Assembly (NCBI GenBank): GCA_965223155.1
Contig: CBDCVR010000013.1
Coordinates: 832,001 to 896,000, forward strand
Reading direction: 5' to 3'
DNA: 64,000 nucleotides
Source: Candidatus Multivoradales bacterium
GTDB taxonomy: Bacteria > Acidobacteriota > Thermoanaerobaculia > Multivoradales > JAHEKO01
The translations under genes and the position numbers were made by a program. Position 1 is the first letter of the stretch. Every line of letters starts with the position of its first letter. The notes beneath the pieces are model-generated. The model saw only the letters and a program-made list of their open reading frames with translations. It made no database searches and had not been told where the DNA came from. Shown here piece by piece: positions 6,236-53,023 of this stretch.

Positions 6236-6240
6236 TCCGC

Positions 6241-21459: not shown

Positions 21460-21550
21460 ACCCATTTGCCGGCTTCTAGTGCGGAGGAGCGCCGCCGAAT
21501 TCGAGTCGAGCAACGATACACCGATCTGGCCTGATGTGCAAAGGAAACGA

Positions 21551-21844
21551 TCACAGCGGCTTCACTTCCAGAAGTCCCTGGTCGGCGAGCTCGGTGACCA
21601 AGGCGACAACGTCTCGCCGGAGGCGCTCCGCCGTCACGTCGTACTCTGCCATGGCGCTGCGCTCGACCTCCCCTACCGGCTGCCCGTCGGCCAACGCGTT
21701 CCACAGAAACGTCCCGACCTCATCCAGACCGAAGTACTGACCGGAACCCAGATGCAGCAGGACGGATTCGCCTCCGAGATCTCGAAACAGAACGTCATCC
21801 GGAACCCGGAAGCGGGTCTCGGGCGCGAGCAAGTCCTCAGCCAC
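21551..21844 (-). CDS. PqqD-family RiPP recognition element (lasso B1)
   Basis: VLFRDLGGESVLLHL..GQYFGLDEVG..LW..L...EYDV....L..D...L...GLL; probable GTG start at 21844. Confidence 0.92.
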   Translation of the reverse strand: MAEDLLAPETRFRVPDDVLFRDLGGESVLLHLGSGQYFGLDEVGTFLWNALADGQPVGEVERSAMAEYDVTAERLRRDVVALVTELADQGLLEVKPL

Positions 21845-21888
21845 GCCGCCCTCGACAGCCGATCTGGTGGCCGCTAGCATCCCAATCT

Positions 21889-27873: not shown

Positions 27874-30800
27874 CTAGGCCCCTCCGTGCTCAATGCAGAG
27901 CTCGTAGTCGCCACGGCCGCTGTAGGACCGAACCTTCCACTTGTAGTAGCCAGCGGTTCCGTTGTACTGGATCGATTCGTCCGAACCGGCATGCGTGGCG
28001 TAAGCCACTCGCTCCCAGGTACCCGCCGAGCCGTTCCACTTGTACAAGTAGAGGTCGAAATCGGTGCCGGCGTCCGCCGAGAGGACGCCGCTCTGAACGC
28101 CTCCGTTGCTGTAGTAGTAGGTGCCGTCCGGCTGCCAGTCATAGTCACCCGAACCGGACAGGTAGCCCGTGTGATGGCTACCAGAGCAGCCTTCGCAGTC
28201 GATCACGATCTCCACCCAATCCAAGCAGAAGAGCTCGTCGGCACCGCCGTACTTGTTGGTCACCCGGAAGCGAATCGTCGTCTCGTCCGAGATGAAGGCT
28301 GAGATGTCGATCGACTCGGTGCCCTCGGCGGAGCCCGAGATGCCGTCAATAACCTGGAGAGTGGTCCAGGTGACGCCGTCGGTGCTGATGTCCAGAGTGA
28401 CTTGGTCGTCGGTGTCCACCGAGTTTCCCGCGATCCAGCGGAAGCTCAGGTTTGCACTGGTGGCGCCAGAGAGGTCGGCCGTACGCTGGACGCTCGGCTG
28501 CGTTCCGGAATCGGGATAGTCGTCCAGGGTCAGCAGCCCGTTGTGTACCTGGGCCTGGCCCGAAGCGGCGCCACCGCCGTTCGGATCCGACTCTTGCCAG
28601 GGTCCTGTCCAGGTCAGGCTGCCGTCGTTCCGCGAGTACGAGCTATCGGTCGAGAACGTGTCTTTGTAGTTGCCATCGACGCAAGAAGTCTCGCAATCGA
28701 TCGCGATGTGAACGTTGTCCACCTTGAAGTTCTCGTCCGTGCCGCCGCCGTAGTTGGCCGCCACGCGGAAGCGAATCCGGGTGTTGGCGGACGCGTAAGC
28801 GGTGATGTCGAAAGTCTTGGTTCCGCTCTGAGCGCCACTGAAACCGGTGAAGTCGTGCAGCGTCGTGTAGGACTGACCGCCGTCGGAGGAAATCTCAGCA
28901 ACCACCCAGTCGGAGGTGTCAACTCCACCGTGGGTCTCCCAGTAGAAGCTCAGCGTCGCGGAAGACGCGTTGGCCAGATTGACCTCGCGCGCGGCGCTCG
29001 GCTGGGTGCCGGTATCGGGATAGTCGTTGAGCACCAGGCGGTTCCAATTGACCGTGACGTTGCCGGCATTGGGACCGGCTCCGGCCACGTCGTTCTCGAT
29101 CCAGCTCGACGCCCAGCTCAAGCTGCCGTCGTTGTTCGAGAAGGACACGGAGTTGAACTCGTCCCGCACCGTACCTGGAACGCACTCGCCGTCCTCAGCC
29201 CGGTAGCCGAAGTCCACGTCCGTCCGATCCTGGCCAGACGCCAGACCGACCGAGGTCGTGTCGTCGAGTGTGCCGTCCAGGTCGAAGGTCTGTTCGAAGC
29301 CCTCGAGGGCGCCGCCAGAGGCGAAGTTGGAGCTGTCGATCTCGACCGTATAGGTACCGGCCTGGAGACCGTCGAAGGTGTAGAAGCCGTTGCTGCCGGT
29401 GGTCTGCATGGTGACACCGCCGGAGCCGTCGATCAGGTTGACCTTGACGCCCGAGATCCCGGGCTCGCCGTCATCCTGAACTCCGTCGCCGTCGAGGTCC
29501 TCCCAGACCCGGTCGCCGATCGAACCCAGCTCGTTGATAACGACCGTGGAGGGATCGCTGTCCGAGACCTGGGTGCCGCCGGCGGTGGTCCCGCTGACCG
29601 AAGCCACGTTGGTAAAGCCAGCCGTGACGTCGGTCACGGTGCAGGTGTAGCCGGTCGAAGCCCCTGCCGCCAGGTCGCCGATCACCTTGTCGCAAACCGG
29701 CGCCAGCGGATCGCTAACGGTTACGCCCGTCAGATCCACGTCGCCGGTGTTGGTCACGACGATCTCGAACGTCACGTCGCTGCCCTCGTTGAAGGTCCGG
29801 CTGTCGGCGCCTTCCGCCTGCTTGCGGATGTCGATCGACGGATCCAGAACCGTAACGGTCGAGGGATCGCTGTCGTTGACTTGCATCCCGTCGGGACCGA
29901 TACCGGTCACCGAGGCGATATTGGTGAACCCGGAAGTGACGTTCTGGACCGTACAGCTATAGCTGAAGGTCGCGCCGGGGCCCAGATCGCCGATGTTGCG
30001 ATCGCAATCGGGCGCCAGCGGATCGGCCACGACCACGTTGCTCAGGGGCACGTTACCGGTGTTGGTCACCACGATGTCGAAGGTCACCGCGCTACCAGAC
30101 TCAAACGAGCGGCTGTCGGGACCCTCCGCCTGCTTGCGAATGTCGATCGATGGCGTCATATCGAGCGGACACAGCGTGCCACCGTGCTTGCTTGAGCCGG
30201 ACAGAACGGTGAAGTCTCCGGAGATGAGGCCTGGACCAATCGGCTGCGAGCAGCTCGTATGGATGGTCGTGTTGAACTGTCCGTCGACGTAGAGATGAAT
30301 ATCGGTACCTACCGTGCCGTCGAAGCTCTGCTTGCTCGAGGGTAGACCGTAAACCGTGAAGATGTCGCCCGGCTCGAGATAGCCCTCGAAGAGGACGTCG
30401 GTTGAACCGCCGCGCTTGCCCTCGACCCGGACCACCCCGGCCGTGTCACCGGTATACATCAAGGTCAGGACGCTGACCTTGCCCTTGCACTCACCGCAGT
30501 CCTGGTAGCCGAAGTCGAGATCCAGCTGAATCTCGCCCGGACCCAGGGAGTAGGTGGTCTGGTTGTCGAGCGTGCCGTCGTAGTCGAAGGTCGGGAAGAA
30601 GCCCGCGGGGAGCGTCGAGGTGTCGATCACGACGGTGTACTCGCCGGGGAGAAGGTTCGTGAACTTGTAGGAACCGTCGCCCTCGGTCGTATCTGTCGCG
30701 ACCTCGTTACCGTCGGCATCCAGAAGCCGCACGATCACGCCGTTGATGCCCGGCTCACCCGCGTCCTGCACACCGTCACCGTCCAGGTCGTTCCAGACCC

Positions 30801-33800
30801 GGTCGCCAAGCTCGCCCAGCGCACGGTAGCCGAAGTCGGCATCGGTGACGACGTCACCCGCGCCCAGTACGACCTGGGTGGAGTGGTCGAGCGTGCCGTC
30901 CCGGTCGAAGGTCTGCTCGAGACCCTCGAGGGGACCACCCGGAGCAACGTTTGACGAGTCGATCTCGACCGTATAGTTGCCCTCCGGCAGGTTGCCAAAG
31001 GTATAGATGCCATCGGCACCGGTGGTCAGCATGGTAACGCCGCCGGAAGAATCGATCAGATTGACCTTGACGCCCGGAATGCCGTTCTCGCCGGCATCCT
31101 GGACGCCGTCACCGTCCAGATCCATCCAGACCCGATCGCCGATCGAGCCCAGACGCTGGTAGCCGAAATCGACGTCGTCACGGGTCTCGCCAGGCATGAG
31201 AGAAATCGTGGTCATGTGGTCGAGCGTGCCGTCCAGATCGAACGTCTGGGACGAGCCGCTCGGCAAGCCGTCGGGCACAACCACGATTGTGTAGTCGCCC
31301 GTCGGCAGGTTCGAGAAGGTGTAGTTGCCATCTCCGGAGGTGACCTGCGTATCGATCACGTCTCCGGTCACAGGATCCACCAGCTGCACGGTCACGCCGT
31401 TGATGCCCGGCTCGCCCGGATCCTGGACACCGTCGCCGTCCAGATCCTCCCAGACCCGGTCGCCGATCGAGCCCAGACGCTGGTAGCCGAAGTCGATGTC
31501 GTCACGATCCGACTCGAGGCCTCCCACGAAACCGATCGAAACGTCAGTGGAACCATCCAGGGTTCCGTCCTGCTCGAACGTCTGCACCACGCCGCTGGGC
31601 AACGTCGTACCGTCGATCATGACGTTGTAGTCACCCGGGGGCAGCGACGTGAAGCTGTAGAAACCGTCGTCGTCGGTGGTCGTATCGGCCACGAAGTTGC
31701 CGTCACCGTCGTAGAGCACGACCCGGACGCCCGGGATCCCGGGCTCCCCGGCATCCTGCACGCCGTCACCGTTGTCGTCGTACCAGACGTAGTCGCCGAT
31801 CGAGCCCGGAGGCACCAGACCGAAGTCATACGTCAGGATGTTGGCATCGACCACCGTGTCGGTAATCGAGCTCGCCGTCGTGTAGCTGTACCCAGAGAGG
31901 GCTCCTTGGTCGATGTAGCCAAAGCTCTCGTCAACGACGTCGGCACCGGCGACCACCACGAGCCGCTCGTAGTCGAGGCCCGCCTGGGTCGTCCCGACAA
32001 GGCCGGCGAGGGCCGAGTTCATGTCGGTCAGCTCGACACCGTAGCCGGTCGAGCGCAGACCGCAGAACTGAATCACGCCGTCGGCGTCGGAGACGTCGCT
32101 CGCAAGGACATCGCCGCCACCCGAGGTCAGAGTCGCGGTAACCCCGGCGATGGGCGTGTCCGAACCGCCCGGAGTCGGCTCGTAGAGACCATCGGCATCG
32201 GCGTCGTACCAGACCCGCTCACTGATGCAATAGCGCTCGGCAGGAGCCAGGGCCTGGTACCCAAAGTCCGCGGCGAGATAGACATCGCCCGCGGCCACGT
32301 TGATGTTCTGAGTCGGCCCCAACGGGGTCGTCAGGGTCAAGTCGGCAACCAGTCCGGCCGCGTCGATCACGACGACCGTGTAGCAGCCGGGAGCCAGGTC
32401 GCCGAAGAAGTACGAACCATCGGGCCCGGTCTTGGTCAGCGCCAGGCTCGTGCCCGGATCCGTGCAGTCCTCGAGACTCAAGGTCACGCCGCCGATGCCG
32501 GCCTCTTCCGGCTCACGCACGCCGTTGCCGTTGTCGTCCAGCCAGACGAAGTCGCCGATCGCGGCCAGAGTCGGATCGATGGTGTAGCCGAAGTCCAGAT
32601 CGTTAAAGGTCTCATCCGTGGTGATCGTGCGCGATACGCTGGGATTCGTGCCTCCGCTCAGCGTCAAACCGGACGGTAGCGTGCTCTCATCGACCTGGGT
32701 GCAGTACGTGTCGGCCGCCAAGTTGTCGAACCAGTAGAAACCGTCCGCATTTGTCTGCGTGGCCTCCTTCGACACCAAGCTGACGCAATCCACCAGCCGC
32801 ACCGTCACGTTGCTAAGTCCGGGTTCGCCACCGTCCTGGGCTCCGTCCCCATCCACATCTAGCCACACCCGGTCGCCCACCGCGCCCGTCGGAACCGGCG
32901 CGAAGTTCTCATCCGCTACCTCGACCGTGTAGGTCCCCGGCACCACGTCATAGAAGTACATGCCGTCGGCGTCGGTCACCCGCTGGCCGATAACGGTACC
33001 GCTCGAGTCGAAAATGTTGACCACCACGCCCGGAATCCCGTCTTCGCCCGGATCCTGGGTGCCGCTCTCATCCAGATCCAGCCAGACCGTGTCGCCGATC
33101 AGGTAGGGATCCGGAGGACAGACGGGGGCACCGTTGATCAGGCCGCAGGCGACCTGCTCGAAACGCCAGAAATTACTGTTGCTGAGATCCAGTCCCCGCA
33201 CCTCGACCTTCCACAGCCCGGAGGGCAGGAGCCCACCACCCGCGACCAGATGGTCGGGATTGTCGGCGGCGTCGGTCGAGATCAAGAACTGCTCCCATTC
33301 CCGCTGCCCGGAGGGGTTGTCGTTGGCGTAGACGTTGGCGTTCGGGCCTCGCACCGCGTAGCGCACGCACGGGCTCCTGAGCACCACAGGGTTGGTGCTG
33401 TCGTCCTCGGGGTTCCCCGCTCCCTGAGCGCCCTCTGCCACCGCGTCGGGCCCCGCGAAAGGCGGAATCCCCGAGCTGTTGAAATCGTCCGTGTCCGAGC
33501 AGGCCTCCGCAACGCCGGACGCCGTCAGGCTGTTGCCGTGATCGAAGTCCCCGTCCCAGATGCGAAGCGCCTGAATGTTGAACGGCACGTCCAGAAAGAA
33601 AACGTACATGCCGTCGTAGGTGGTCGGCGCATTCTGGTGGTCGAACGGCACGCCCGGGTTGTTCAAGATGAACTCCGCCAGGGTCGGGTAGACGACGAGC
33701 TGCTCGTTGTTGCCGAGGCCGAAACCGCCCTCGAAACCGAACTGGGCGCTGAAAACCGCCAGCGGAACGTCCGCGAAGACCTTGTAGTTCGAAACACCTT

Positions 33801-34446
33801 CGCAGCCCGCCGGCGCGGGATCGACGTCACACTCGGGAGCGTCCTTCAGATCGATGACGACGTTGTAGAAGGCGGTGTCGCTTCCCGGCAGCGCGGCATC
33901 GGGGTTGCCATCGCCGTCACCGTCGATCTCGACGAGAACGTCCCAGAAGTCGTTGTTGGGCATCCGCGCCGGACTCGCCGTCCAGACACCGGCCGGATCG
34001 GCCAGCGGATTGTCTTCGTTGCCGAACCACTCACCGACCATGTCGGCCGGGTTGGTATTGCCGATGCGCGTGGGATCCTCGAACATCCGGACCCGAATCG
34101 CCCGGGTGCCTTCGTCCCAATGGCCCTGAGTCGGAGCGAAGCAGGTTGCATCCACCGACGGCCAGTCCAGCACGCAGGGATCGCCGGTGTCGCCGTCGAA
34201 CATCCGGAACAGGAACGTGCCGCCCGCCTTGTCGACCGGAACCGAGAGGCCGACCGAAGTGGTCTGGTCGCTGAGCCCGGCAAAACCCGAGACCGCGGAC
34301 AGGAACTTGGCGTCGGTAACGTCCTCGCTCGGGAAAGCCGTAAACGGTCCCGCCGTGAGCTGGGCCGAGGCCGGAGCTACCGCCACTGCAATCAGCAGCG
34401 CGGTCGCCAGCGTGATCGAAAAACCCTTGTACATTCTCGTCGTCAT
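27874..34446 (-). CDS. Secreted SdrD-B-like repeat surface protein, long paralog (2190 aa)
   Basis: 9 SdrD-B units, Cys-rich domain, two DUF11-like repeats (VTF.IVVTNTG.V.L), two beta-sandwich repeats (NDGSL.W...W.E), C-terminal PPC-like domain (DFDLYLYKW...DESI.Y). Confidence 0.88.
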   Translation of the reverse strand: MTTRMYKGFSITLATALLIAVAVAPASAQLTAGPFTAFPSEDVTDAKFLSAVSGFAGLSDQTTSVGLSVPVDKAGGTFLFRMFDGDTGDPCVLDWPSVDATCFAPTQGHWDEGTRAIRVRMFEDPTRIGNTNPADMVGEWFGNEDNPLADPAGVWTASPARMPNNDFWDVLVEIDGDGDGNPDAALPGSDTAFYNVVIDLKDAPECDVDPAPAGCEGVSNYKVFADVPLAVFSAQFGFEGGFGLGNNEQLVVYPTLAEFILNNPGVPFDHQNAPTTYDGMYVFFLDVPFNIQALRIWDGDFDHGNSLTASGVAEACSDTDDFNSSGIPPFAGPDAVAEGAQGAGNPEDDSTNPVVLRSPCVRYAVRGPNANVYANDNPSGQREWEQFLISTDAADNPDHLVAGGGLLPSGLWKVEVRGLDLSNSNFWRFEQVACGLINGAPVCPPDPYLIGDTVWLDLDESGTQDPGEDGIPGVVVNIFDSSGTVIGQRVTDADGMYFYDVVPGTYTVEVADENFAPVPTGAVGDRVWLDVDGDGAQDGGEPGLSNVTVRLVDCVSLVSKEATQTNADGFYWFDNLAADTYCTQVDESTLPSGLTLSGGTNPSVSRTITTDETFNDLDFGYTIDPTLAAIGDFVWLDDNGNGVREPEEAGIGGVTLSLEDCTDPGTSLALTKTGPDGSYFFGDLAPGCYTVVVIDAAGLVADLTLTTPLGPTQNINVAAGDVYLAADFGYQALAPAERYCISERVWYDADADGLYEPTPGGSDTPIAGVTATLTSGGGDVLASDVSDADGVIQFCGLRSTGYGVELTDMNSALAGLVGTTQAGLDYERLVVVAGADVVDESFGYIDQGALSGYSYTTASSITDTVVDANILTYDFGLVPPGSIGDYVWYDDNGDGVQDAGEPGIPGVRVVLYDGDGNFVADTTTDDDGFYSFTSLPPGDYNVMIDGTTLPSGVVQTFEQDGTLDGSTDVSIGFVGGLESDRDDIDFGYQRLGSIGDRVWEDLDGDGVQDPGEPGINGVTVQLVDPVTGDVIDTQVTSGDGNYTFSNLPTGDYTIVVVPDGLPSGSSQTFDLDGTLDHMTTISLMPGETRDDVDFGYQRLGSIGDRVWMDLDGDGVQDAGENGIPGVKVNLIDSSGGVTMLTTGADGIYTFGNLPEGNYTVEIDSSNVAPGGPLEGLEQTFDRDGTLDHSTQVVLGAGDVVTDADFGYRALGELGDRVWNDLDGDGVQDAGEPGINGVIVRLLDADGNEVATDTTEGDGSYKFTNLLPGEYTVVIDTSTLPAGFFPTFDYDGTLDNQTTYSLGPGEIQLDLDFGYQDCGECKGKVSVLTLMYTGDTAGVVRVEGKRGGSTDVLFEGYLEPGDIFTVYGLPSSKQSFDGTVGTDIHLYVDGQFNTTIHTSCSQPIGPGLISGDFTVLSGSSKHGGTLCPLDMTPSIDIRKQAEGPDSRSFESGSAVTFDIVVTNTGNVPLSNVVVADPLAPDCDRNIGDLGPGATFSYSCTVQNVTSGFTNIASVTGIGPDGMQVNDSDPSTVTVLDPSIDIRKQAEGADSRTFNEGSDVTFEIVVTNTGDVDLTGVTVSDPLAPVCDKVIGDLAAGASTGYTCTVTDVTAGFTNVASVSGTTAGGTQVSDSDPSTVVINELGSIGDRVWEDLDGDGVQDDGEPGISGVKVNLIDGSGGVTMQTTGSNGFYTFDGLQAGTYTVEIDSSNFASGGALEGFEQTFDLDGTLDDTTSVGLASGQDRTDVDFGYRAEDGECVPGTVRDEFNSVSFSNNDGSLSWASSWIENDVAGAGPNAGNVTVNWNRLVLNDYPDTGTQPSAAREVNLANASSATLSFYWETHGGVDTSDWVVAEISSDGGQSYTTLHDFTGFSGAQSGTKTFDITAYASANTRIRFRVAANYGGGTDENFKVDNVHIAIDCETSCVDGNYKDTFSTDSSYSRNDGSLTWTGPWQESDPNGGGAASGQAQVHNGLLTLDDYPDSGTQPSVQRTADLSGATSANLSFRWIAGNSVDTDDQVTLDISTDGVTWTTLQVIDGISGSAEGTESIDISAFISDETTIRFRVTNKYGGADELFCLDWVEIVIDCEGCSGSHHTGYLSGSGDYDWQPDGTYYYSNGGVQSGVLSADAGTDFDLYLYKWNGSAGTWERVAYATHAGSDESIQYNGTAGYYKWKVRSYSGRGDYELCIEHGGA

Positions 34447-35004: not shown

Positions 35005-37254
35005 ATGCAACTCGAAATTCGGCTCCTGGGTGGTTTCGAGGCACGCTTGGGCGACCGCTCGGTGGAGCGGTTCGAGTCGCAAAAGGTCCGAGCCTTATTG
35101 GCGTTTCTGGCACTCAACCGAGCTCCGGTTGACCGGGACCGCCTGGCCGGCCTGTTCTGGCCGGACCGCTCCGACGAAGCCGCACGCCGGAACCTGCGAC
35201 AGGCCCTCTACAGCATTCGCACGGCCCTGGCCCAAGAAGCGGGCAGCCAGCCCACCTTGGAGGCCTCCCAGAGCGCGGTCGGACTGCATCCGGATCTGGA
35301 ATGCCGCGTGGACGTCGAGGTCTTCCGCCGGAACCTCAGGGAGGGCCTGACCGACCAAGGACCCGACCCGCAGCGGCTGACCGACGCGGCCCGTCTCTAC
35401 AAAGGCGACCTCCTGGCCGGTTTCTTCCTCAAGAACTGCATCGAATTCGAGGAATGGCTGGTCACCGAGCAGGAGCTCCTGCGCGAGGAAGCGCTCGAGG
35501 TGTTCCGCACCCTCGTCCAGATCTATCTCGCCCGCGGCGAGCATCGCGTCGGCATTCAGTACGCCAAACGCCTGCTGGCGATCGATCCGCTCTCGGAAGA
35601 AGCGCATCGCCAACTCATGAGCCTCTATACCCTTGCCGGCCGGCGGAACCGGGCCCTGGCCCAGTACGAGCAGCTCCTGAACACCCTGCAGCAGGAGCTG
35701 GGCGTCGAGCCCCTTGACGCGACCAAGAACCTCTACCGCTCGATCCTGCTGGAAGCCAGCGGCCAAACACCGGACAAGCCCGACGAGGACGCAGCGCCGC
35801 CGATCGTGCCGCTGGTCGGGCGCTCCGAGGCCACCGAAGCACTGCAAGAGACCTGGCGTTCGGTCCTCGCCGGCGAAGGGCGCCTGACGGCTCTCGTGGG
35901 CGAAGGCGGCGTCGGCAAGAGTCGGCTGGGCAAGTCATTCCTGGATCGAGCCACCTCGAAACGGCACGCCATCGTGCTGCGGGGACGCTGCTACGAGGCG
36001 GCGCCTCTCGTCAGCTACCGGCCGTTCCTCGAGATCTTGCGAGCGCTGTTCACGGACGTCTTGGTCGATGAGCCCGAGACTCTGCAGTCGCTCGATCCCC
36101 GGCACCTCGCCAACCTTCTCCACCTCTATCAGGATCCACTCGAGGGTCCCCTCGCCGACTTGGGCTTGGAGAGCCTGCCGGACGCCAATCCGGACGGCAT
36201 CGGGGCCTCGCTGGCCGCGCTGATCGACGCCATGATCGCCGCCGGTATCGGCGACGCGCGGCCGGTGGTGCTCATGCTCGAGGACGTGCAGCACGCCGAC
36301 GGCGCCAGCCGCCGTCTCCTCGAGGCTCTCGTCGAAGGCTTGGAGCGACGGCCGCTTTGGATCCTGTGCACCTGCGAGTCGGAGCGGACGCTTCGCCCCG
36401 CGATCGCGGCGGCCGGAGCGGCTTCCCGGTCGCTAAATCTCGGCCGTCTCCACTACGAAGACGTCCAGGAAATCGCCAAGGCTCTGGTGGACCTGGCCGG
36501 TGTCCCGGAGCTGACCGAATTTCTCTGGGCCGCCGGCGGCGGCCTACCGCTGGCGGTGACCGAGCTCATCAATCTCCTGTGGGACGAGAAGGCCCTGGTC
36601 CCGGCCGGTCCCGGGCATTGGTCGCTGGATCGAGACCTCGCCGCCATCGACGCTCCCACCGATCTGACCGAGCTCATCGGCCGGCGGGTGGACAAGCTTC
36701 CCAATTCGGCCCGCCGCCTGCTGTCGCTGGCTGCCATCATGGGACATCAGTTCGAGGTCGATGCGCTCGCCACCGCGGGCAACGAGCACATGACCGTCGT
36801 CGAGACCTTCGTGCGCCTGACCCTGGAACGCTGGCTCCTGCGCCAGTTCCCGAAGGCCTGGTCCCGAGCCGGGCTGCAGAAAGACCTCGTCCTCTGGGCC
36901 CGCGGGGCGCGCCGGGGCTTTTTCGAGTTCTCGCACCGATCGATCCGGGTCGCCGTCCTGGAACGCATCAACCCGCTGCGCAAGCGCATCATGCACGGAG
37001 AAGCGGCCAGTGCCCTGGCGAGCCGGCATGCCGACGACGTCGAGGACTTCAGCGAATCGCTGGCCTTCCATTTCTTGGCAGCCGGTGACCCCGCCGCCGC
37101 TCGCCCGTGGCTCGAGCGCTCCGCCCAGCGCGCCGAAGAGGTCGGTGGCCACGAGATCGCCGACGAATACCGCTCGCTCGCAGAGCGGGCGGCCGAGCGC
37201 GAGCACCTGCGCGCGGTCGACGGCCCGCGCCCCCTCACTCGGCCCAACCGCTAG
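35005..37254 (+). CDS. SARP/BTAD-domain transcriptional regulator with AAA ATPase
   Basis: wHTH (LLAFLAL..V.RD.LA.LFWP..ARRNLRQAL), BTAD (DPLSEEAHRQLM...ELGVEP), Walker A GEGGVGKS, LEDVQ, GGLPL. Confidence 0.9.
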   Translation: MQLEIRLLGGFEARLGDRSVERFESQKVRALLAFLALNRAPVDRDRLAGLFWPDRSDEAARRNLRQALYSIRTALAQEAGSQPTLEASQSAVGLHPDLECRVDVEVFRRNLREGLTDQGPDPQRLTDAARLYKGDLLAGFFLKNCIEFEEWLVTEQELLREEALEVFRTLVQIYLARGEHRVGIQYAKRLLAIDPLSEEAHRQLMSLYTLAGRRNRALAQYEQLLNTLQQELGVEPLDATKNLYRSILLEASGQTPDKPDEDAAPPIVPLVGRSEATEALQETWRSVLAGEGRLTALVGEGGVGKSRLGKSFLDRATSKRHAIVLRGRCYEAAPLVSYRPFLEILRALFTDVLVDEPETLQSLDPRHLANLLHLYQDPLEGPLADLGLESLPDANPDGIGASLAALIDAMIAAGIGDARPVVLMLEDVQHADGASRRLLEALVEGLERRPLWILCTCESERTLRPAIAAAGAASRSLNLGRLHYEDVQEIAKALVDLAGVPELTEFLWAAGGGLPLAVTELINLLWDEKALVPAGPGHWSLDRDLAAIDAPTDLTELIGRRVDKLPNSARRLLSLAAIMGHQFEVDALATAGNEHMTVVETFVRLTLERWLLRQFPKAWSRAGLQKDLVLWARGARRGFFEFSHRSIRVAVLERINPLRKRIMHGEAASALASRHADDVEDFSESLAFHFLAAGDPAAARPWLERSAQRAEEVGGHEIADEYRSLAERAAEREHLRAVDGPRPLTRPNR

Positions 37255-40281: not shown

Positions 40282-41226
40282 TCAGCTCCGCGCCACGTGC
40301 TCGTGGGCGTGGTAACTGCTCCGCACCAACGGTCCGGCCTCGCAATGATCGAAGCCCAGTTCGAGAGCCGCTTCCCGGTACTTGGCGAACTCGTCGGGAT
40401 GGACCCACCGGTCCACCGGCAGGTGACCGCGAGTCGGCTGCAAGTACTGCCCGATCGTCAGAATCTCGACGCCGGCGTCTCGGATGTCGTGCATCGTCGC
40501 CAGCACCTCGTCCGGGGTCTCGCCCAAGCCGACCATGATCCCGGTCTTGATGCGTCCGGAGTAGCGGCCGTCGCTGCGACGGTGCGCCGCCTCCCGCAAG
40601 AGTTCGAGCGAGCGGCGGTACCGGCTTCCAGGCCGGGCCACGCGGTACATCCGCGGCACCGTTTCGACGTTGTGCGAGAACACCGCTGGCCCGGCGGCTA
40701 GCACGACCTCCAGCGCCTCGGGAACCCCGCGAAAGTCGGGGGTCAGCAGCTCGACCGCGGTCGCCGGGTTCCGGCGGTGAATGGCCTCAACGACCGCGCG
40801 GAAGTGTCCGGCGCCGCCGTCGGGGAGATCGTCGCGATCGACCGAGGTGATGACGGCGTGCCGAATTCCCATCGCCCGAACCGCTTTCGCCACGTTCGCC
40901 GGCTCCTCGGGATCCACGCCGGGATCGGGGCGGCCCGACATCACCGAACAGAAACCGCACCGGCGGGTACAGATGTCCCCGAGAATCATGAACGTGGCGG
41001 TGCCATGCCGTCCCCAGCATTCATAGATATTGGGGCACCGGGCCTCCTCGCACACGGTGTTGAGCTTGAGGTCGGCCACCAGCCGGCGCACCTCGTGGTA
41101 CCTGGCCGGCGTCTCCAGCTTGATGCGTAGCCATGGCGGACGAGGTTCTCGCCGGCCGTTGCTGGACTCGGTCTCGGTTCCAGCCCCAGGGCCGGCTCCG
41201 GAGCCGATCTGAACCAAGCGGCTCAT
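40282..41226 (-). CDS. lipA: Lipoyl synthase
   Basis: CEEARCPNIYEC, CTRRCGFC, RSSYHA. Confidence 0.96.
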   Translation of the reverse strand: MSRLVQIGSGAGPGAGTETESSNGRREPRPPWLRIKLETPARYHEVRRLVADLKLNTVCEEARCPNIYECWGRHGTATFMILGDICTRRCGFCSVMSGRPDPGVDPEEPANVAKAVRAMGIRHAVITSVDRDDLPDGGAGHFRAVVEAIHRRNPATAVELLTPDFRGVPEALEVVLAAGPAVFSHNVETVPRMYRVARPGSRYRRSLELLREAAHRRSDGRYSGRIKTGIMVGLGETPDEVLATMHDIRDAGVEILTIGQYLQPTRGHLPVDRWVHPDEFAKYREAALELGFDHCEAGPLVRSSYHAHEHVARS

Positions 41227-41345: not shown

Positions 41346-42053
41346 TCAGGCGACCCGATCGGCGCCGCGAACCGCAGCCGGCAACTCGGCGACGCGCTCG
41401 TAGTCGAAGACTTCGGCGAAACGATCCATCGCCGCCACGGCTACCGCCTTCAGGGCCGGAACCTCGCTCGGTCGCTCGTGTTCGATCGAGGTCATCACCA
41501 CCCCGGGGAGCCCGCAAGCCACGATACCTGCGAACAGGGACAGGTCGGTGGCAACGTTGAGGGCGAAACCATGAGTGGTGACCCAGCGGCTCAAATGGAC
41601 GCCGATCGACGCGATCTTGCGCTCCTCCACCCAGACCCCGATCTCGGCCTGCTCGCGACCCGGGGCCGCGGTGATGCCGAAGCCCTCGAGCACCCGCACA
41701 AGCACCTCCTGGAGGTCACGCACGTACCGACGCACGTCCTTCCTGTCTGGAGCCAGATTCAGAATCGGATACCCGACCAGCTGGCCCGGACCGTGGTACG
41801 TCACCTGCCCTCCCCGGTCAGTCGAGGCCAGATCGATGCCCTCTCCGGCCAGCATCTCCGGACTCAGCAACACGTCGCCCTCGCTCGCGGACCGGCCCAG
41901 CGTGTAGATGTGCGGATGCTCCAAGAGCAGCAGGTAGTCCGCGTCTCCGGCTCGCACATCCGCGCGTAGCCGTTCCTGCAGGGCGGTCGCCTGCCCGTAC
42001 TCGAGCCGGCCCAGATACCCGGCCCTCAGCGTCCTCTGTCGACGCGTCGTCAC
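41346..42053 (-). CDS. lipB: Octanoyltransferase
   Basis: LEHPHIYTLGR, RGGQVTYHGPGQ, KIASIG, HGFALN. Confidence 0.95.
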   Translation of the reverse strand: MTTRRQRTLRAGYLGRLEYGQATALQERLRADVRAGDADYLLLLEHPHIYTLGRSASEGDVLLSPEMLAGEGIDLASTDRGGQVTYHGPGQLVGYPILNLAPDRKDVRRYVRDLQEVLVRVLEGFGITAAPGREQAEIGVWVEERKIASIGVHLSRWVTTHGFALNVATDLSLFAGIVACGLPGVVMTSIEHERPSEVPALKAVAVAAMDRFAEVFDYERVAELPAAVRGADRVA

Positions 42054-42189
42054 CCGCCCATTCTAGGCGTTTCGGAAAACCCGGCCGAGTTCCGTCAGAA
42101 AAACCGGGGGTCGCGGCAACCCAAGTACAAGAGGGCAACAAGAGCCGATCATGGGGACCGGTTTCGGAGTGCCCTCGGAGGGTTTCCGA

Positions 42190-42429
42190 ATGACCGCCAT
42201 CCGCAACAACCGTCGCCTTCTCGCCGCCCTGTGCCTGGTTCTCGCCAGCCTGGCCTTCGGCACCACGCCGGCAGCCGCCACCGAGACCCGCGTCCCGGCC
42301 GTCGAAGAACGCCTCCAGGAACGGATCTCCGACCTCGTCTTCCACGTTCAGGCGTTCCTCGCCGGCTGGCTCAACCAGTTCGAGAGCGCCCGCGAAGAAG
42401 AAGGGGCGAAGCTAGAAGACGGCAGCTAA
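42190..42429 (+). CDS. Small secreted peptide (79 aa)
   Basis: GGAGGG RBS; Sec signal MTAIRNNRRLLAALCLVLASLAFGTTPAAA; host-like GC3; acidic tail EEEGAKLEDGS. Confidence 0.75.
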   Translation: MTAIRNNRRLLAALCLVLASLAFGTTPAAATETRVPAVEERLQERISDLVFHVQAFLAGWLNQFESAREEEGAKLEDGS

Positions 42430-42437
42430 TCCGTTCG

Positions 42438-42471
42438 GGAACGCCCGGTCTTCTCCGGAGCCGGGCGTTCC
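42438..42471 (+). terminator. Stem-loop after the peptide gene (terminator/attenuator or mRNA-stabilising hairpin)
   Basis: Perfect 11-bp stem GGAACGCCCGG / CCGGGCGTTCC; no U-tract. Confidence 0.5.
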
Positions 42472-42518
42472 TGGACAGCCAGACGGGCGGGTGGTAGCTT
42501 GTTGCGACGGAAAGTCAA

Positions 42519-43049
42519 ATGGCTGTGTCCAACGAGTACCGACGCACGGATGTCGATGACATCGTCGGGCTGTTCCGCTCTAGGTCAAGACGGCTGTTGG
42601 TTCGCTTCCGGATTCCCGTTGAGGACGCCGAGGATTTGGTTCAGGATTCACTCGTTCTCTTCCTGCGAAGGCAGCCGGACACGAAGAACGAAGTCGCTTG
42701 GCTCGAAGCAGCCCTTCGATATCGGTGCCTGACCTATTGGAGGGAGCGCCGAAGGCAAACGTACCTTCAGGTGGACCAGTCGATTCTCGAATCCCTCTCG
42801 GAAAAAGATCCGCCGAAACAGGAGCATCGCGTTTTTCTTCACGAGCTGTCATCAATCGTCGACTCGTTGCCCAAGAAGTGTCGCGTTCTACTCAGGCTCA
42901 GATACAAGACCGACCTGAGGCCTGCCGAAATCGCAGACCGACTTGGCTACCGCCGGAGCGGGATCTACAAACTCATCGACCGATGCATTGGAGTCGTAAC
43001 CCGCAAGATCTTTTCCTCCGGATTAGCAAGGCCGAGACGCTATCAATGA
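42519..43049 (+). CDS. ECF-type sigma-70 factor
   Basis: Region 2 DAEDLVQD; region 4 LPKKCRVLL.LRY...AEIADRLG. Confidence 0.9.
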   Translation: MAVSNEYRRTDVDDIVGLFRSRSRRLLVRFRIPVEDAEDLVQDSLVLFLRRQPDTKNEVAWLEAALRYRCLTYWRERRRQTYLQVDQSILESLSEKDPPKQEHRVFLHELSSIVDSLPKKCRVLLRLRYKTDLRPAEIADRLGYRRSGIYKLIDRCIGVVTRKIFSSGLARPRRYQ

Positions 43050-44401
43050 ACCACTTCTCGGCCGAGCAACTTCAGCGATTCTCAGCAGGCAAGCTACCTC
43101 GGAAAGAGCGGGTGATGGTCGCTAGGCACTTGGTGAGTCGCTGTCCCAAGTGCATGCAGATCGCCGATGTCCACTGGAAGAACAGCTTCGCTGGGACCTC
43201 TTCGTCAACTTCTACTGAGGACGACTACTCCGAAGCCTTCGAACGAGGGATCGAAAAGGGATACAGCACTTGGACCCTACTCGGACGCGAACGGAGAGGG
43301 GTCGATGCCCTGTTGCAAGAGCTTCTTGAGCTCCCAGCGAGCCGACAACAGCTCGTCACTGCAAACAGCCCCAGATACTGGAACGCCACGCTCTGCCGGG
43401 AGTTGCTGGAAGAAGCAACCACAGCAGGTGGCTCGGACACCTCACATGCCGTTCATCTCACGCGGTGCGCGATCCAAATCAGCCAGAAGCTTGAGGAAAG
43501 CAAGTACGGCAAGGCTCTGGTCTCAGACCTGCAGGGGCGAGCCTGGACAACGCTCGGATCGATCCTGAGGCTAGCGTCCGACTACGATGGAGCAGAAGAA
43601 GCCTTGACAAAGGCTGCCTACTTCCTCCACACGGGAAGTGGTGATGAGCTAGAAGCCGCCCATCTACTTGCGGTGCAAGCCAGTCTTCTTGTCGCTCGGA
43701 GAAACTTCGATCAGGCATTGCGGATTCACAAGAAGCTGGACAGGGTTTATCGACGCCGCGGCGACAGGCACATGGTCGGCAGAGTTTTCTTGAAGAAGGC
43801 GTGGGTCTTCGCGAAGATGCATGATTCGACGAGGGAGATTGAAGCTCTAAGACAGGCTCGAACTCATCTCGATCCGGCCCAAGACCCGAGGCGTTGGGCC
43901 ATTGCTCAACATCATCTACTTGCGGTATTTGTCGACCAAGGTGAGCTTGAAAAGGCGCAGTCGATGGTCCTAGGTGTCCGCGAAGCGCACTTGGCGCTAG
44001 GGGACGCTCTGGCTCTCATTCGCCTCGAGTGGCTCGAAGCTCGAATCGCCTACAAGAAAGGCGACCTGGCCGAGGCCACGGCCAAGCTCAAGAGCGTTCG
44101 CGACCAGTTCGTTGAGCGGGAGATTGGGATCGACGTCGCGCTGTCGTCCCTGGAGCTGGCCGAGATGCACGCCTCGCAGGGCGAGGTCGAGGCGGCCAAG
44201 GCCCTGCTCGCCGAAGCCATCCCGATTCTCAAGGCCCTCCGGGTAGGCCCCGACACAGTCGCGGCGATGGCCTTCCTCGGCGAGCTGGTCGCTCGCGAGA
44301 CGGTGGAACGCGAGATCTTTCGCCGCGCCGTTGCCTTCGTGCGCAAGGCCCAGAACGATCCCCAGGTGCGCTTCGAGCCCGCCGAGCTGCTAGGCGACTA
44401 G
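43046..44401 (+). CDS. Zinc-finger anti-sigma-like domain fused to TPR repeats (451 aa, soluble)
   Basis: ATGA overlap with the sigma stop; H...L.RF..G.L...E...V.RHLVSRCPKC; TPR-like helices (AWTTLGSILRLASDYDGAEEAL); no TM segment. Confidence 0.8.
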   Translation: MNHFSAEQLQRFSAGKLPRKERVMVARHLVSRCPKCMQIADVHWKNSFAGTSSSTSTEDDYSEAFERGIEKGYSTWTLLGRERRGVDALLQELLELPASRQQLVTANSPRYWNATLCRELLEEATTAGGSDTSHAVHLTRCAIQISQKLEESKYGKALVSDLQGRAWTTLGSILRLASDYDGAEEALTKAAYFLHTGSGDELEAAHLLAVQASLLVARRNFDQALRIHKKLDRVYRRRGDRHMVGRVFLKKAWVFAKMHDSTREIEALRQARTHLDPAQDPRRWAIAQHHLLAVFVDQGELEKAQSMVLGVREAHLALGDALALIRLEWLEARIAYKKGDLAEATAKLKSVRDQFVEREIGIDVALSSLELAEMHASQGEVEAAKALLAEAIPILKALRVGPDTVAAMAFLGELVARETVEREIFRRAVAFVRKAQNDPQVRFEPAELLGD

Positions 44402-44449
44402 GACCGGCCAGGGCTTCCGGCGCGGCCGCGCCGATCCGGGTCCGGTCTC

Positions 44450-45889
44450 CTAGAGGAAGGGATCCAACTCGCCCCAGGTTTCCTCGGCCAGGGTGCGCTT
44501 GACATCGTTCATGAAGTGGTCGGCGTCGGCCCCGTCCACCAGCCGGTGGTCGTAGGTGATCGCGAAGTACGACATATGCTTGATGGCGATGATGTCGTTG
44601 CCTTCGCGGTCCATATCCACGACTGGACGCTTCTCGATCGCGCCCAGGCCCAGGATCGCCACCTGCGGTTGATTGATGATGGGGGTGCCGAAGAGCGAGC
44701 CGAAGACCCCCGGATTGGTCACGGTGAAGGTCCCGCCTTGCACCTCGTGCGGCTGGAGCTTCTTTGCGCGAGCGCGCTCCGCCAGGTCATTGGCGGTCTT
44801 GGCCAGCCCGACCAGATTGAGCTGGTCGGCGTTCCGGATCACCGGCACGATGAGTCCCCAGTCCAGAGCCACCGCCATGCCGACGTTGATGTCTTTCTTG
44901 AACACGATGTTGGTGCCGTCGACCGAGGCGTTGAGCTTAGGGTGCGCCTTGAGCGCGCTTGCCACGGCCCGGAAGATGAACGGCATGTACGTCAGCTTGG
45001 TGCCGTGGGCGGCCTGGAAGCCGCCTTTAGCGCGGTTCCGGATGCGGGCCACGCGGGCCATATCGATATGGAAGACCGTGGTGACGTGGGCGGAGGTAGC
45101 CTTCGAATAGGTCATGTGCGCCGAGGTGATCTGGCGGATCTTCGACATCGGAACGATCTCGACGCTATCGCCCTCCGAGTACGGCGCCACCGAAAAATCG
45201 CCGGCGTCTCGACGCATCGGAGTCACGACCTGCGCCTGGACCGCGCCCGACGGCGCCGGCGTCGGAACCTCCGAAGCCGCCGCGGCCGCTGGCTCGGCTG
45301 GCTCGGCAGGGGCGGCGTCCGCGCCACCTCCGGCGAGAAAGGCCTCCAGGTCCCGCTTGGTTACCCGGCCGTGGATCCCAGTCCCTGAGACCTGCGAGAG
45401 ATCGACCCCGGCCTCCTTCGCCATCTTGCGCACCACCGGGCTCGAGAACTTGCGGACCCGCTCGGTATCCGGGTCGTCGGCACCGGAGCCATCCGAGAGG
45501 TCTGAAGAATCTGGGTCATCGGAGCCAGCGGAGCCAGCAGAGTCATCGGAGCCAGCGTCCGAGGTCGGAGCTTTCGCGGCGGCCTTCTCCGCCGGCTCGC
45601 TGCCGGCGGCAGCAGGCTCGGCCTCGGCTGGAGCCTCCCGAGGCTGGTCTCCGGGCTCGCCCAGGATCGCCACGATCTCGTTGATGGCAACCGTCGCGCC
45701 CTCCTCGAACTTGACCTCCAGCAAGACGCCGTCGGCCGGGCTCGGGATCTCGGCATCGACCTTGTCGGTCGAGATCTCGAAGAGCGGCTGATCGCGCTCG
45801 ACGCTGTCTCCGACCTTTGCGAGCCAGCGGGTGATAGTACCCTCGGCGATCGACTCGCCCATCTGCGGCATGATGACTTCGGTTGTCAT
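44450..45889 (-). CDS. sucB: 2-oxoacid dehydrogenase E2 dihydrolipoamide acyltransferase
   Basis: Lipoyl domain STDKVD, E3-binding SPVVRKMA...GTG..GRVT, catalytic DHRLVDG; substrate specificity not certain. Confidence 0.85.
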   Translation of the reverse strand: MTTEVIMPQMGESIAEGTITRWLAKVGDSVERDQPLFEISTDKVDAEIPSPADGVLLEVKFEEGATVAINEIVAILGEPGDQPREAPAEAEPAAAGSEPAEKAAAKAPTSDAGSDDSAGSAGSDDPDSSDLSDGSGADDPDTERVRKFSSPVVRKMAKEAGVDLSQVSGTGIHGRVTKRDLEAFLAGGGADAAPAEPAEPAAAAASEVPTPAPSGAVQAQVVTPMRRDAGDFSVAPYSEGDSVEIVPMSKIRQITSAHMTYSKATSAHVTTVFHIDMARVARIRNRAKGGFQAAHGTKLTYMPFIFRAVASALKAHPKLNASVDGTNIVFKKDINVGMAVALDWGLIVPVIRNADQLNLVGLAKTANDLAERARAKKLQPHEVQGGTFTVTNPGVFGSLFGTPIINQPQVAILGLGAIEKRPVVDMDREGNDIIAIKHMSYFAITYDHRLVDGADADHFMNDVKRTLAEETWGELDPFL

Positions 45890-45937: not shown

Positions 45938-47332
45938 CTAGACGTGAATGGCGTGTCCCGCGGCCGCGTGGGCCGCCTCGGCCATCGCCTCCGACAAGGT
46001 CGGATGCGCATGAATCGTGCGAAACAACTCTTCCGTTGTGGATTCGATCTTGAGTGCTACGCAGGCTTCGGCAATGAGGTCCGTCGCCCGGGTTCCGATG
46101 ATGTGGACCCCGAGAAGCTGGTCGTGCCGAGTTTCGCGTACGACCTTGACGAAGCCGGCGGTCTTGCCTTCGATCGCCGCCTTGCCCGAGGCCGAGAACG
46201 GAAACTTGCCAACCGCGACCTCGTAGCCCCGCTCACGAGCTTCGGCTTCGGACAGGCCGACGCTTCCGACCTCGGGCTCGCAATACGTCACCGACGGAAC
46301 CTGGTCGTAGTCGAGCGGCCGGGTCTCGGCTCCGGCCATGTGCTCAGCCGCGACGATGCCCTCGGCCGAGGCGACATGCGCCAACCAACGGGTCGGAACC
46401 ACGTCTCCGATCGCGTAGATCGAAGGCACGGACGTCTGCAAGAACTCGTTGACCGTGACGTAGCCGCGCTCGGTCGCCACGCCGGCCTCGTCCAGCCCCA
46501 GCCCTTCCGTGACCGGCGCACGCCCGATGGCAATCAGGAGTATCTCGGCGGTCACCGGCTCTTGCTTGGCGTTCTTCTCCAGTACCACTTCGACCGCGCC
46601 GCCCCGAACCTCGGCTCCGGCCAACTTGGTCGCGGTCTTGACCTTGATGCCGCGCTTCTTGAAATTGCGAGCCAGCTCCTTCGAGATCTCTTCATCTTCG
46701 AGCGGCAGGATCCTGGGCAACATCTCGACCAGTGTGACCTCGGAGCGAAACGAGCGAAAGATAGACGAGAACTCGCTTCCCACCGCTCCCGATCCGACCA
46801 CAACCAACGACTCGGGGACCCGGTCCACTTCGAGCAGGTGATCGGAGTTGACGATGTGCCGCCCATCGGTTGGCGCCATCGGAATCTCGCGCGGTACCGA
46901 GCCGGTCGCGATGAGGATGTTCTTAGTCTCGATCCGGCGCGTGCCGTCCGGGCTCGCGACCTCGACAACTGAAGGCGAGACGACCCGGCCGAGGCCGTGG
47001 ATCCCTTCGATCTTGTTTTTCTTGAACAGAAATTCGATGCCTTTTGCGTTCTTGTCGACCACGCCGCGCTTGTAGGCCTGGGCGGTCTCGAGCTCGAGCT
47101 CGGGATCGCCCACCGCAACGCCGAAGCGGCCGGCCTCGCGCACCTCTTCGAGCACGTTCGCTGTGTGGAGCAACGCTTTCGTGGGAATGCAGCCTCGGTG
47201 GAGACAGGTCCCGCCGAACTTGGGGTCCTTCTCGACCACGGCTACGTTGAACCCCAGCTGAGCCGCCCGAATGGCGGCCACGTAGCCTCCTGGGCCGCTG
47301 CCGATGACAACCAGGTCCTTCGCGTCGCTCAT
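45938..47332 (-). CDS. lpdA: Dihydrolipoyl dehydrogenase
   Basis: GSGPGG, GGTCLHRGCIP, HAHPTLSE. Confidence 0.95.
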   Translation of the reverse strand: MSDAKDLVVIGSGPGGYVAAIRAAQLGFNVAVVEKDPKFGGTCLHRGCIPTKALLHTANVLEEVREAGRFGVAVGDPELELETAQAYKRGVVDKNAKGIEFLFKKNKIEGIHGLGRVVSPSVVEVASPDGTRRIETKNILIATGSVPREIPMAPTDGRHIVNSDHLLEVDRVPESLVVVGSGAVGSEFSSIFRSFRSEVTLVEMLPRILPLEDEEISKELARNFKKRGIKVKTATKLAGAEVRGGAVEVVLEKNAKQEPVTAEILLIAIGRAPVTEGLGLDEAGVATERGYVTVNEFLQTSVPSIYAIGDVVPTRWLAHVASAEGIVAAEHMAGAETRPLDYDQVPSVTYCEPEVGSVGLSEAEARERGYEVAVGKFPFSASGKAAIEGKTAGFVKVVRETRHDQLLGVHIIGTRATDLIAEACVALKIESTTEELFRTIHAHPTLSEAMAEAAHAAAGHAIHV

Positions 47333-47375
47333 CGTCCCGCTCACTTTATCCCTTCGCGGCCGATCGCCGTCGCTT

Positions 47376-52202: not shown

Positions 52203-53023
52203 CTAGGGCCTGTTAACACTTAAGGGTTAGGATCGTATAAGCTCCGTGCATGGAAATCACGGAGAAACAGTACGAGCGCATTGCAGATTGCTTTCCAGTG
52301 CAGCGAGGCAACGTCAGCGTGCCGAATGTTCAAGTGCTGAACGCAATTCTCTACGTTGCCGAACACGGCTGCAAGTGGCGCGGGCTCCCGAAACGATTCG
52401 GGAATTGGCACACGATCTACACTCGCATGAACCGTTGGTCCAAGAACGGCGTGTTGGATCGGGTGTTCGCGCGGCTCCAAGAGGAGCAGATCGTGCGAGT
52501 CAAGATCGAGGCCGTGTCACTTGACAGCACGATCGTGCGGGTTCACCCCGACGGTACGGGAGCATTAAAAAAAACGGCCCCCAGGCCATTGGAAAGTCCC
52601 GCGGTGGATGGACCACCAAGATTCATATGGTTGCCGCAGATGCTCGAACAGCCATCACCTTCTGCCTCTCGCCCGGCCAAGCGCACGATGCGCCCGTCGG
52701 CCGATGCTTGCTGAAAGACCTGGGCCGACCGAAGCAACCGATCGCGCTTGTCATGGACCGAGCCTACGAAGGCAACGAAACCCGACAACTCGCTCTGAAT
52801 CTCGGCTATACCCCTGTCGTGCCACCCTTGAGCACTCGCCTTCGGCCCTGGGCCTACGACCGGCTCCTCTACAAACGTCGCAACGAGATCGAACGGCTCT
52901 TTCGCCGGCTCAAAGGCTACCGGCGCATCTTTTCCAGATTCGAGAAGCTCGACGTCATGTACATCGCCTTCATCCATTTCGCCCTCATCGCTGATGCACT
53001 GCGACAGTGTTAACACGCCCTAG
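52203..53023 (+). mobile_element. IS5-family insertion sequence (IS427-like group)
   Basis: Terminal IRs CTAGGGCCTGTTAACACT / AGTGTTAACACGCCCTAG (1 mismatch); CTAG at both ends; two-ORF transposase. Confidence 0.93.
52250..53013 (+). CDS. IS5 transposase (orfA/orfB joined by -1 frameshift at A8, 52567-52574)
   Basis: GCKWRGLP..FG.W.T.Y.R..RW, DST; -1 frame G.SRGGWTTKIH, DRAY, RNEIERLF..LK..R. Confidence 0.9.

Follow-up and report, generated by a model that had tools for sequence, protein, structure and literature searches.

The 64,000-nucleotide stretch analysed here (the window) comes from a Candidatus Multivoradales bacterium of the Acidobacteriota (contig CBDCVR010000013.1, forward-strand positions 832,001 to 896,000); all coordinates are counted from its first letter. 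It carries three consecutive plus-strand genes, encoding a 79-aa peptide (P0001, 42190–42429, from the list of open reading frames, ORFs), a 176-aa extracytoplasmic function (ECF) sigma factor (P0002, 42519–43049) and a 451-aa protein (P0003, 43046–44401) that joins an N-terminal zinc-finger anti-sigma (ZAS) domain, recognized by profile, to tetratricopeptide repeats (TPR, Pfam TPR_12). The unit is flanked by minus-strand genes assigned by Pfam, lipB (41346–42053) and lipA (40282–41208) on one side, E2 acyltransferase (44450–45889) and lpdA (dihydrolipoamide dehydrogenase, 45938–47350) on the other. The sigma stop codon and the P0003 start codon overlap in an ATGA at 43046–43049. A preliminary description of this DNA had named all of these elements within the lpdA-E2-lipB-lipA run, and each is found where it had been placed. 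We treat the three genes as one regulatory module, which is a new variant of the ECF sigma/anti-sigma system with a soluble ZAS anti-sigma protein.

By its profile matches P0002 is a divergent ECF-type sigma factor that consists of regions 2 and 4 only. The TIGR02937 sigma70-ECF model covers residues 29–159 of 176 with 52.7 bits (cut-off 42.9). The Pfam Sigma70_r2 match (residues 22–79) falls just under its cut-off (23.2 versus 24), the r4_2 match (residues 109–152) lies below its own (18.4 versus 25.7), and none of the named ECF subgroup models reached its cut-off for P0002.

The first 49 residues of P0003 (43046–43192) form the predicted anti-sigma domain, which is encoded directly downstream of the sigma factor; the two genes are likewise adjacent or overlapping in three related loci described below (L001–L003). 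The putative zinc ligands are H3, H28, C33 and C36, the last three within RHLVSRCPKC, which gives the spacing H-x4-C-x2-C that had been noted before. A profile of 22 N-termini searched against solved structures matched DdvA (8rlz_A, 2.3e-6), RslA (3hug_B, 4.2e-5), full-length DdvA (8rot_B, 7.1e-5) and ChrR (7e-4, residues 1–59), and each of these alignments needs a one-residue gap between His and Cys. A ChrR-type anti-sigma NCBIfam model matches residues 3–41 weakly (3.6e-4). Among the 150 best relatives, 127 carry H-x(3,4)-C-x2-C within their first 120 residues, 97 with the x4 spacing and 30 with the canonical x3. In an alignment of 100 relatives H3 is at least 90% conserved, while the invariance of H28, C33 and C36 stems in part from the choice of rows with the motif; Pfam zf-HC2 matches 9 of the 100. 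That the N-terminus is a zinc-type (class I) anti-sigma domain, a ZAS variant, is well supported by these sequence matches and by the three predicted helices, and the pairing of an ECF sigma factor with a translationally coupled zinc-finger anti-sigma domain, as first described, holds. The protein had also been described as soluble: its highest 19-residue hydropathy is 1.34, no membrane segment is present, and a membrane-bound anti-sigma was rejected on this ground.

The remainder of P0003 is a TPR protein (TPR_12, 2.5e-9), as the TPR-like repeats seen earlier downstream of the zinc motif had suggested. The AlphaFold2 model (pLDDT 94.3, pTM 0.85) contains helices at residues 6–13, 19–30 and 34–49, a flexible segment at 50–57, a long linker helix at 58–95 (43217–43330) and an uninterrupted TPR solenoid from residue ∼ 98 to 449 (43337–44392), the presumed sensor. 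Model confidence is 55–77 in the flexible segment, > 86 in the long helix and > 90 in the TPR part. Foldseek against the PDB returned Pins/LGN first (6e-6, TM-score 0.55) and RapJ-PhrC second (8.3e-6), followed by RapF-PhrF (6.7e-5), NprR (7.8e-5) and RapI (1.7e-4, TM-score 0.54, root-mean-square deviation 4.9). The Rap and NprR matches span TM-scores of 0.46–0.54 and stand among designed and kinesin-light-chain TPRs. In keeping with the earlier proposal of an RRNPP-like receptor, Rap and NprR are among the closest solved folds; at the level of sequence the matches are to generic TPR proteins only. We take the modelled fold as a superhelix of the peptide-binding type, which does not imply descent from RRNPP proteins.

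P0003 belongs to a family that is very large in metagenomes and apparently undescribed. A word-indexed search yielded 10 relatives, whereas searching 1.84 billion cluster representatives with a profile brought up 78,697 matches at E ≤ 0.001, 16,599 at 1e-10 and 4,423 at 1e-30; the last figure counts 50%-identity clusters, and at the laxer thresholds generic TPR proteins are surely among the matches. Scores exceed 358 bits for each of the 150 best relatives, most of which are 430–470 aa long and align over their full length. Twenty-three of them lack H-x(3,4)-C-x2-C, and by Pfam four of these (P0041, P0042, P0102 and P0159) have an XRE helix-turn-helix (HTH) domain in place of the zinc finger, the others having no recognized N-terminal domain. 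The occurrence of the same TPR module behind an XRE HTH argues for a portable input domain. Five relatives (P0041, P0042, P0054, P0057 and P0102) are 900–1160 aa long and hold two copies of the TPR module, with an XRE HTH at the start and/or in the middle, or zf-HC2 at the start (P0057); from their sequences they would seem to have arisen by fusing two receptor units in tandem. The family profile found no further copy within the window, and tblastn of P0003 and P0062 against plasmids gave no match.

The peptide gene is preceded by a Shine-Dalgarno-like GGAGGG (42177–42182, plus strand) 7 nt before its ATG, and the G-rich block at this position is kept in the alignment with L001–L003. Its in-frame G+C contents at the three codon positions (0.71/0.47/0.84) resemble those of the housekeeping genes around it. 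For dN/dS only the L001–L003 pair is informative, most pairs of loci being saturated at synonymous sites; in this pair the proportion of nonsynonymous differences (pN, 0.273) is lower than that of synonymous differences (pS, 0.571), which argues that the ORF is under selection. Judged by these features the small ORF is most likely a real gene. P0001 has a basic N-terminus (RNNRR) and a hydrophobic stretch from residue 10 (14-residue Kyte-Doolittle mean 2.76), and a signal sequence is predicted for residues 1–30 (42190–42279), followed by an acidic mature part (residues 31–79; net charge -6 over the last 45 residues). The cleavage site (AAA before T31) and export were read by eye from these features, in agreement with the earlier view of an exported 79-aa peptide; the amphipathic middle described with it turns out to be only moderate (hydrophobic moment 0.3–0.5). 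A lipoprotein was rejected, since no lipobox precedes the Cys of the signal sequence (by eye), and so was Tat export, the twin Arg not being retained in L002 or P0020.

The peptide used alone in a word-indexed search matched only itself among 2 candidates. A profile of five aligned peptides returned 26 proteins at E ≤ 10 among 2,919 candidates, nine of them below 1e-15; all 26 were judged family members on inspection and all are acidic over their last 45 residues. Eight, the window's included, form a subfamily in which the signal sequence is conserved (MKSLRNNRRILGAILLTLVCF...) and the helical middle varies, and which has the tail G-x-x-[ILV]-[ELV]-D, whose exact [ILV][ELV]D end is present in six of the eight. 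G72 is invariant among them and opens the C-terminal motif of the window's peptide, GAKLEDGS (residues 72–79, 42403–42426, plus strand), which matches the relatives' tail; P0019 ends in VDPCEEDGSC. The other 18 resemble the peptide of L004, a fourth related locus, in carrying a tandem RGQ[MIL]DP[DN]G unit, in two copies in 11 and three in seven by regular expression. The unit is terminal in all 18, and P0026 adds a third, degenerate copy. Overall the motif sits at the extreme C-terminus of 24 of the 26 peptides. Because it is fixed at the free C-terminus while its copy number varies among close relatives, a processed, functional end would be expected rather than a spacer. TPR co-chaperones of the carboxylate-clamp type bind the C-terminal EEVD motif. 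The acidic, Asp-ending free C-termini found here beside a TPR protein (IED, ILD, IVD) offer no more than a resemblance to it; the peptide of the present system differs in being exported.

The related loci come from 29 pattern matches in genome contigs, of which four encode a relative (L001–L004), all in metagenome-assembled genomes of Thermoanaerobaculia/Acidobacteria. L001–L003 have the order of the window, lipB on the minus strand, then peptide, sigma and ZAS-TPR genes on the plus strand, then E2 and lpdA on the minus strand (the L002 contig stops before E2). The preliminary description had looked to neighbouring small signal-peptide ORFs and conserved C-termini as a test of its proposal: a peptide homologue lies directly upstream in 4/4 fetched homologous loci, and the shared C-terminal motif, tandemly repeated in one subfamily, has been described above. 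With the window included, a small signal-sequence ORF precedes the sigma gene by 68–129 nt on the same strand in all five loci. Between the window and L001/L003, identity is 77% for E2, 77–79% for lpdA and 56–61% for lipB, versus 49–50% for sigma, 38–39% for ZAS-TPR and 32–34% for the peptide. This gradient indicates that the unit is old in the lineage and changes more quickly than the genes around it, with the peptide changing most quickly of all. The unit had also been called inserted; as the same arrangement occurs in three other genomes, the word should not be read as a recent event, and a recent horizontal insertion was rejected in view of the synteny of L001–L003 and of identities that scale with those of the flanks.

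The window's sigma and ZAS-TPR genes do stand out in composition. G+C is 54–59% over 42500–44000 versus ∼ 66% around it, and third-position G+C (GC3) is 0.66 for sigma and 0.69 for ZAS-TPR versus 0.82–0.84 for the peptide gene and the flanks. The low GC3 is peculiar to the window's genome, both genes matching their neighbours in L001–L003, and the pair may have undergone allelic replacement by a lower-GC relative. PADLOC defence models gave no match, nor did Rfam over 41800–44700.

L004 (module at 5736–7191) has different neighbours, with an ExbD-like gene upstream, and a reduced module. Its sigma is 87 aa long and aligns with region 2 only (27% identity, pairwise E 5e-4), region 4 being gone; its TPR protein (403 aa) lacks the zinc finger at its start. 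A peptide gene with two RGQMDP[DN]G units is still found directly upstream, so that the peptide and the TPR protein are the pair retained in all five loci. The zinc-finger-less TPR protein is 59% identical to P0182, which also lacks the finger, and 44–45% identical to finger-bearing ones; the identity to another such representative suggests that the L004 form is a lineage and not an accident. About 2 kb upstream of this module, a 66-aa ORF (L004, 3308–3508, plus strand) has a signal sequence and six cysteines and could encode a small secreted disulfide-rich peptide.

Upstream of the peptide gene lies a promoter-like box (42115–42143, plus strand), a candidate ECF-type -35/-10 pair made of GGCAAC (42115–42120), AGAGG (42130–42134) and a following AC. 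None of the three elements varies when the window is aligned with L001–L003; L004 was left out of that alignment because its upstream region shows no similarity. A single copy of the GGCAAC box occurs in each of L001–L003 and in the 64-kb window, and none in L004, where the sigma has no region 4. The AAC stands ∼ 17 nt before CGAAT/CGTAG in L001–L003, an arrangement that resembles the consensus of ECF promoters; the downstream half in the window is CAAGA. Before the sigma gene, TG[GC]TA[GT]C[TC]T is found at the same position in the window and L001–L003; the window copy, TGGTAGCTT (42492–42500, plus strand), is an extended -10-like element ∼ 20 nt before the sigma ATG, and its function as such is putative. 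A sigma-70 promoter scan gave no full site. On the lipB strand, all four syntenic loci have a -10-like TAGAAT/TACAAT box 6 nt ahead of the lipB GTG (42051–42065 in the window), a distance that suggests a leaderless lipB mRNA.

The hairpin reported earlier between the peptide and sigma genes is present as a GC-rich 20-bp stem without a U-tract (42433–42476, plus strand), a candidate terminator, attenuator or transcript stabilizer. The terminator scan did not list it; its only sites are on the minus strand, 4 versus 2.3 expected, which is chance level. A strong stem-loop follows the peptide stop codon in all five loci, and in L004 it is followed by a U-run. As whole intergenic regions, those of the window (z = -4.33, with 0/200 shuffles folding as well), L001 (-3.41) and L003 (-4.85) fold better than their shuffles.

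The closest known relatives in design are the soluble ZAS proteins. Like P0003, the anti-sigmas of ChrR-RpoE (Rhodobacter sphaeroides), RsrA and RshA are cytoplasmic and encoded just after their ECF sigma, and ChrR shares an N-terminal anti-sigma domain of the zinc-binding type, as predicted for P0003, and a two-domain plan whose C-terminal part is the sensor (PMC8999054). ChrR has a C-terminal cupin where P0003 has a TPR solenoid of ∼ 350 residues. The present protein further differs in its H-x4-C spacing, shared with 97 of its 127 motif-bearing relatives, in place of H-x3-C, and in the conserved gene for an exported peptide that accompanies it; redox sensing, characterized in the known proteins, would be conjectural for P0003. 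Among solved structures, the N-terminal domain is matched best by DdvA of the Myxococcus xanthus DdvA-DdvS pair, also an anti-sigma with TPR repeats, which is however a transmembrane protein with a periplasmic TPR-CHAT part and is thought to act by proteolysis (PMC11506125); P0003 has neither a membrane segment nor a CHAT domain. In ECF42, cytoplasmic TPR repeats likewise control an ECF sigma, but there the sigma itself carries them and an anti-sigma is lacking, whereas here they are fused to the anti-sigma domain (PMC7826278; PMC8999054).

With the RRNPP systems (Rap, NprR, PlcR, PrgX, Rgg), among them Rap-Phr, the module shares a cytoplasmic TPR protein, here a presumed receptor, encoded beside a small signal-sequence peptide and, in some relatives, an XRE HTH before the same TPR module. 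In the model P0003 also has the Rap layout of an N-terminal three-helix bundle, a linker helix and TPRs; the Rap bundle and linker hold the target and let go of it on peptide binding (PMC3601965). The differences are a diderm acidobacterial host, a window in which the oligopeptide importer Opp was not found, a longer and acidic mature peptide, and an output that is a zinc-finger anti-sigma domain with a sigma factor as its presumed target and not an HTH or Rap-type bundle. In the literature RRNPP systems figure as a trait of Firmicutes (PMC10075063).

In the literature covered (full texts, subscription journals apart), no description of a cytoplasmic ZAS-TPR protein or of a peptide-linked anti-sigma was found. 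A review of non-canonical ECFs lists oxidative conformational change, partner switching and one case of mechanosensing as mechanisms of soluble anti-sigmas and notes uncharacterized soluble ZAS groups (PMC8999054). The ECF reclassification mentions TPRs only as the C-terminal extension of ECF42 and in a FecR-like anti-sigma near ECF267, and places soluble anti-sigmas in 10 groups, others probably escaping detection (PMC7826278). ECF context surveys have probably overlooked the present family, since the zinc-finger models match so few of its members (9/100). Pairs of an ECF sigma and its anti-sigma rank among the chief signalling devices of bacteria, and few soluble anti-sigmas have a known input. 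Were the peptide the ligand, cytoplasmic peptide sensing would not be confined to Firmicutes and sigma release would join its outputs; were it not, the family would still offer a new and easily testable type of anti-sigma sensor.

We propose the following working model. The ECF sigma would be kept inactive in the cytoplasm by its co-encoded class I anti-sigma domain (H-x4-C-x2-C), a step that is well supported. The architecture suggests that the C-terminal TPR part is the sensor, connected with this domain through a flexible stretch followed by a long helix, in the manner of Rap, and that a ligand in the TPR superhelix would reposition the N-terminal bundle and so free the sigma. The conserved linkage points to the acidic C-terminal motif of the upstream-encoded peptide as the ligand; the peptide might be exported, processed and taken up again, or might be met before export. 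Freed sigma would then transcribe the peptide gene from the GGCAAC box, and read-through of the hairpin may extend transcription to the sigma's own operon, creating a self-reinforcing loop. Consistent with this last step, the box is present in the four loci with a full sigma and absent where region 4 is missing. For the full chain, in which ZAS-TPR holds the sigma and releases it when the TPR part binds the peptide, we would give somewhat less than an even chance. By analogy an RRNPP-like reading is plausible. A wider version, in which RRNPP logic operates in a diderm phylum, with a pheromone that returns, binds a Rap-like anti-sigma TPR and frees the sigma, perhaps across the whole ZAS-TPR/HTH-TPR family of environmental bacteria, we hold to be distinctly doubtful.

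Several observations weigh against release by a returning peptide. The peptide is exported and its presumed receptor cytoplasmic. Two TonB genes in the window mark the host as diderm, and no oligopeptide importer (Opp) is found among the 38 scanned ORFs of the 64-kb window. Eukaryotic LGN/Pins match the modelled fold as well as Rap and NprR do, and a sequence-level relationship to RRNPP proteins was not found. The best-conserved part of the peptide is its signal sequence; the mature part (∼ 45–50 residues, its helical middle conserved) exceeds the usual spacer of a pro-peptide in both size and conservation, and in the window it ends in LEDGS and not in the terminal Asp of most relatives. The link to a peptide was followed in five loci, all from Thermoanaerobaculia/Acidobacteria, whereas the protein family comprises thousands of clusters. 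As to the regulatory signals, the intergenic folds of L002 (z = -1.54) and L004 (+0.31) are no better than shuffles, and the GGCAAC box could equally be a control site of the divergent lipB; its position before the peptide gene would, from the sequence, suit a peptide that is the sigma's output no less well than one that is its input.

In a serious rival reading, oxidation of the Cys/His site frees the sigma, as in RsrA, RshA and ChrR, and the peptide is mere output. The TPR part would then be a scaffold or the binder of another cytoplasmic protein; the peptide, as what the sigma's regulon chiefly produces, would serve in the envelope or outside the cell without feeding back. The H/H/C/C site is retained, the conserved ECF-like box stands directly upstream of the peptide gene, the characterized soluble ZAS anti-sigmas answer oxidative signals (PMC8999054), and in four of the five loci the unit lies among lipoate/dihydrolipoamide, that is thiol/disulfide, genes. 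Such a redox or zinc switch leaves unexplained, however, why thousands of relatives keep a TPR part of ∼ 350 residues, which also turns up on HTH domains, why in L004 the peptide is still paired with the TPR protein although region 4 and the zinc finger have gone, and why the peptide motif is terminal and tandemly repeated; we consider it somewhat unlikely. The topological difficulty of an exported ligand would vanish if the TPR part bound the C-terminus of the unexported precursor, in the way that TPR co-chaperones clamp a C-terminal EEVD, and the sigma reported the balance of peptide synthesis and export, with no re-import. The motif at the free C-terminus of 24/26 peptides, the terminal Asp of six of the eight close relatives and the unusually well-conserved signal sequence would all suit a monitor of this kind, for which, however, no precedent among sigma/anti-sigma systems was found in the literature surveyed. 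Tandem motif repeats are, moreover, more typical of processed and released peptides, and we think this the least probable of the readings weighed here.

It is also conceivable, and to our mind improbable, that the peptide is an unrelated neighbour, an independent small exported protein inherited along with the sigma operon, while the TPR part has some other partner. Since the window and its three syntenic loci are related by descent, together they weigh scarcely more than a single observation; the peptide gene is preceded by a promoter-like box of its own and followed by a hairpin, and its GC3 in the window (0.82) departs from those of sigma (0.66) and ZAS-TPR (0.69). Yet L004 retains the gene order in a different neighbourhood, the gap to sigma is short and on the same strand in all five loci, and the ORF is under selection by the pN and pS values of the L001–L003 pair.

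The rest of the window holds several features of other kinds. Upstream of the lipoate genes, a 749-aa regulator (35005–37254, plus strand) combines BTAD and AAA_16 domains in a SARP/AfsR-like architecture; it has no match to the ZAS-TPR profile. The segment 17151–23031 comprises, by Pfam, an asparagine-synthase-like gene (19537–21288, minus strand) and an HPr-kinase-C-like gene (18437–19480, minus strand), together with genes for a CxxCxxCC protein (17151–17534, minus strand) and a Crp-type regulator (17599–18297, minus strand) and two unassigned plus-strand ORFs (21362–21877 and 21889–23031). By resemblance this may be a lasso-peptide-type cluster for ribosomally synthesized and post-translationally modified peptides. 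A tyrosine recombinase of the XerC/D-like type is encoded at 2919–3851 (minus strand), and the N-terminal fragment of an IS4/5-family transposase (DUF4096) at 52250–52714 (plus strand). Two giant paralogous surface-type proteins of 1317 and 2190 aa (23106–27059 and 27874–34446, minus strand) are built of SdrD_B and CarboxypepD_reg repeats, and the best Pfam stretch of both lies at the same coordinates, 882–964.

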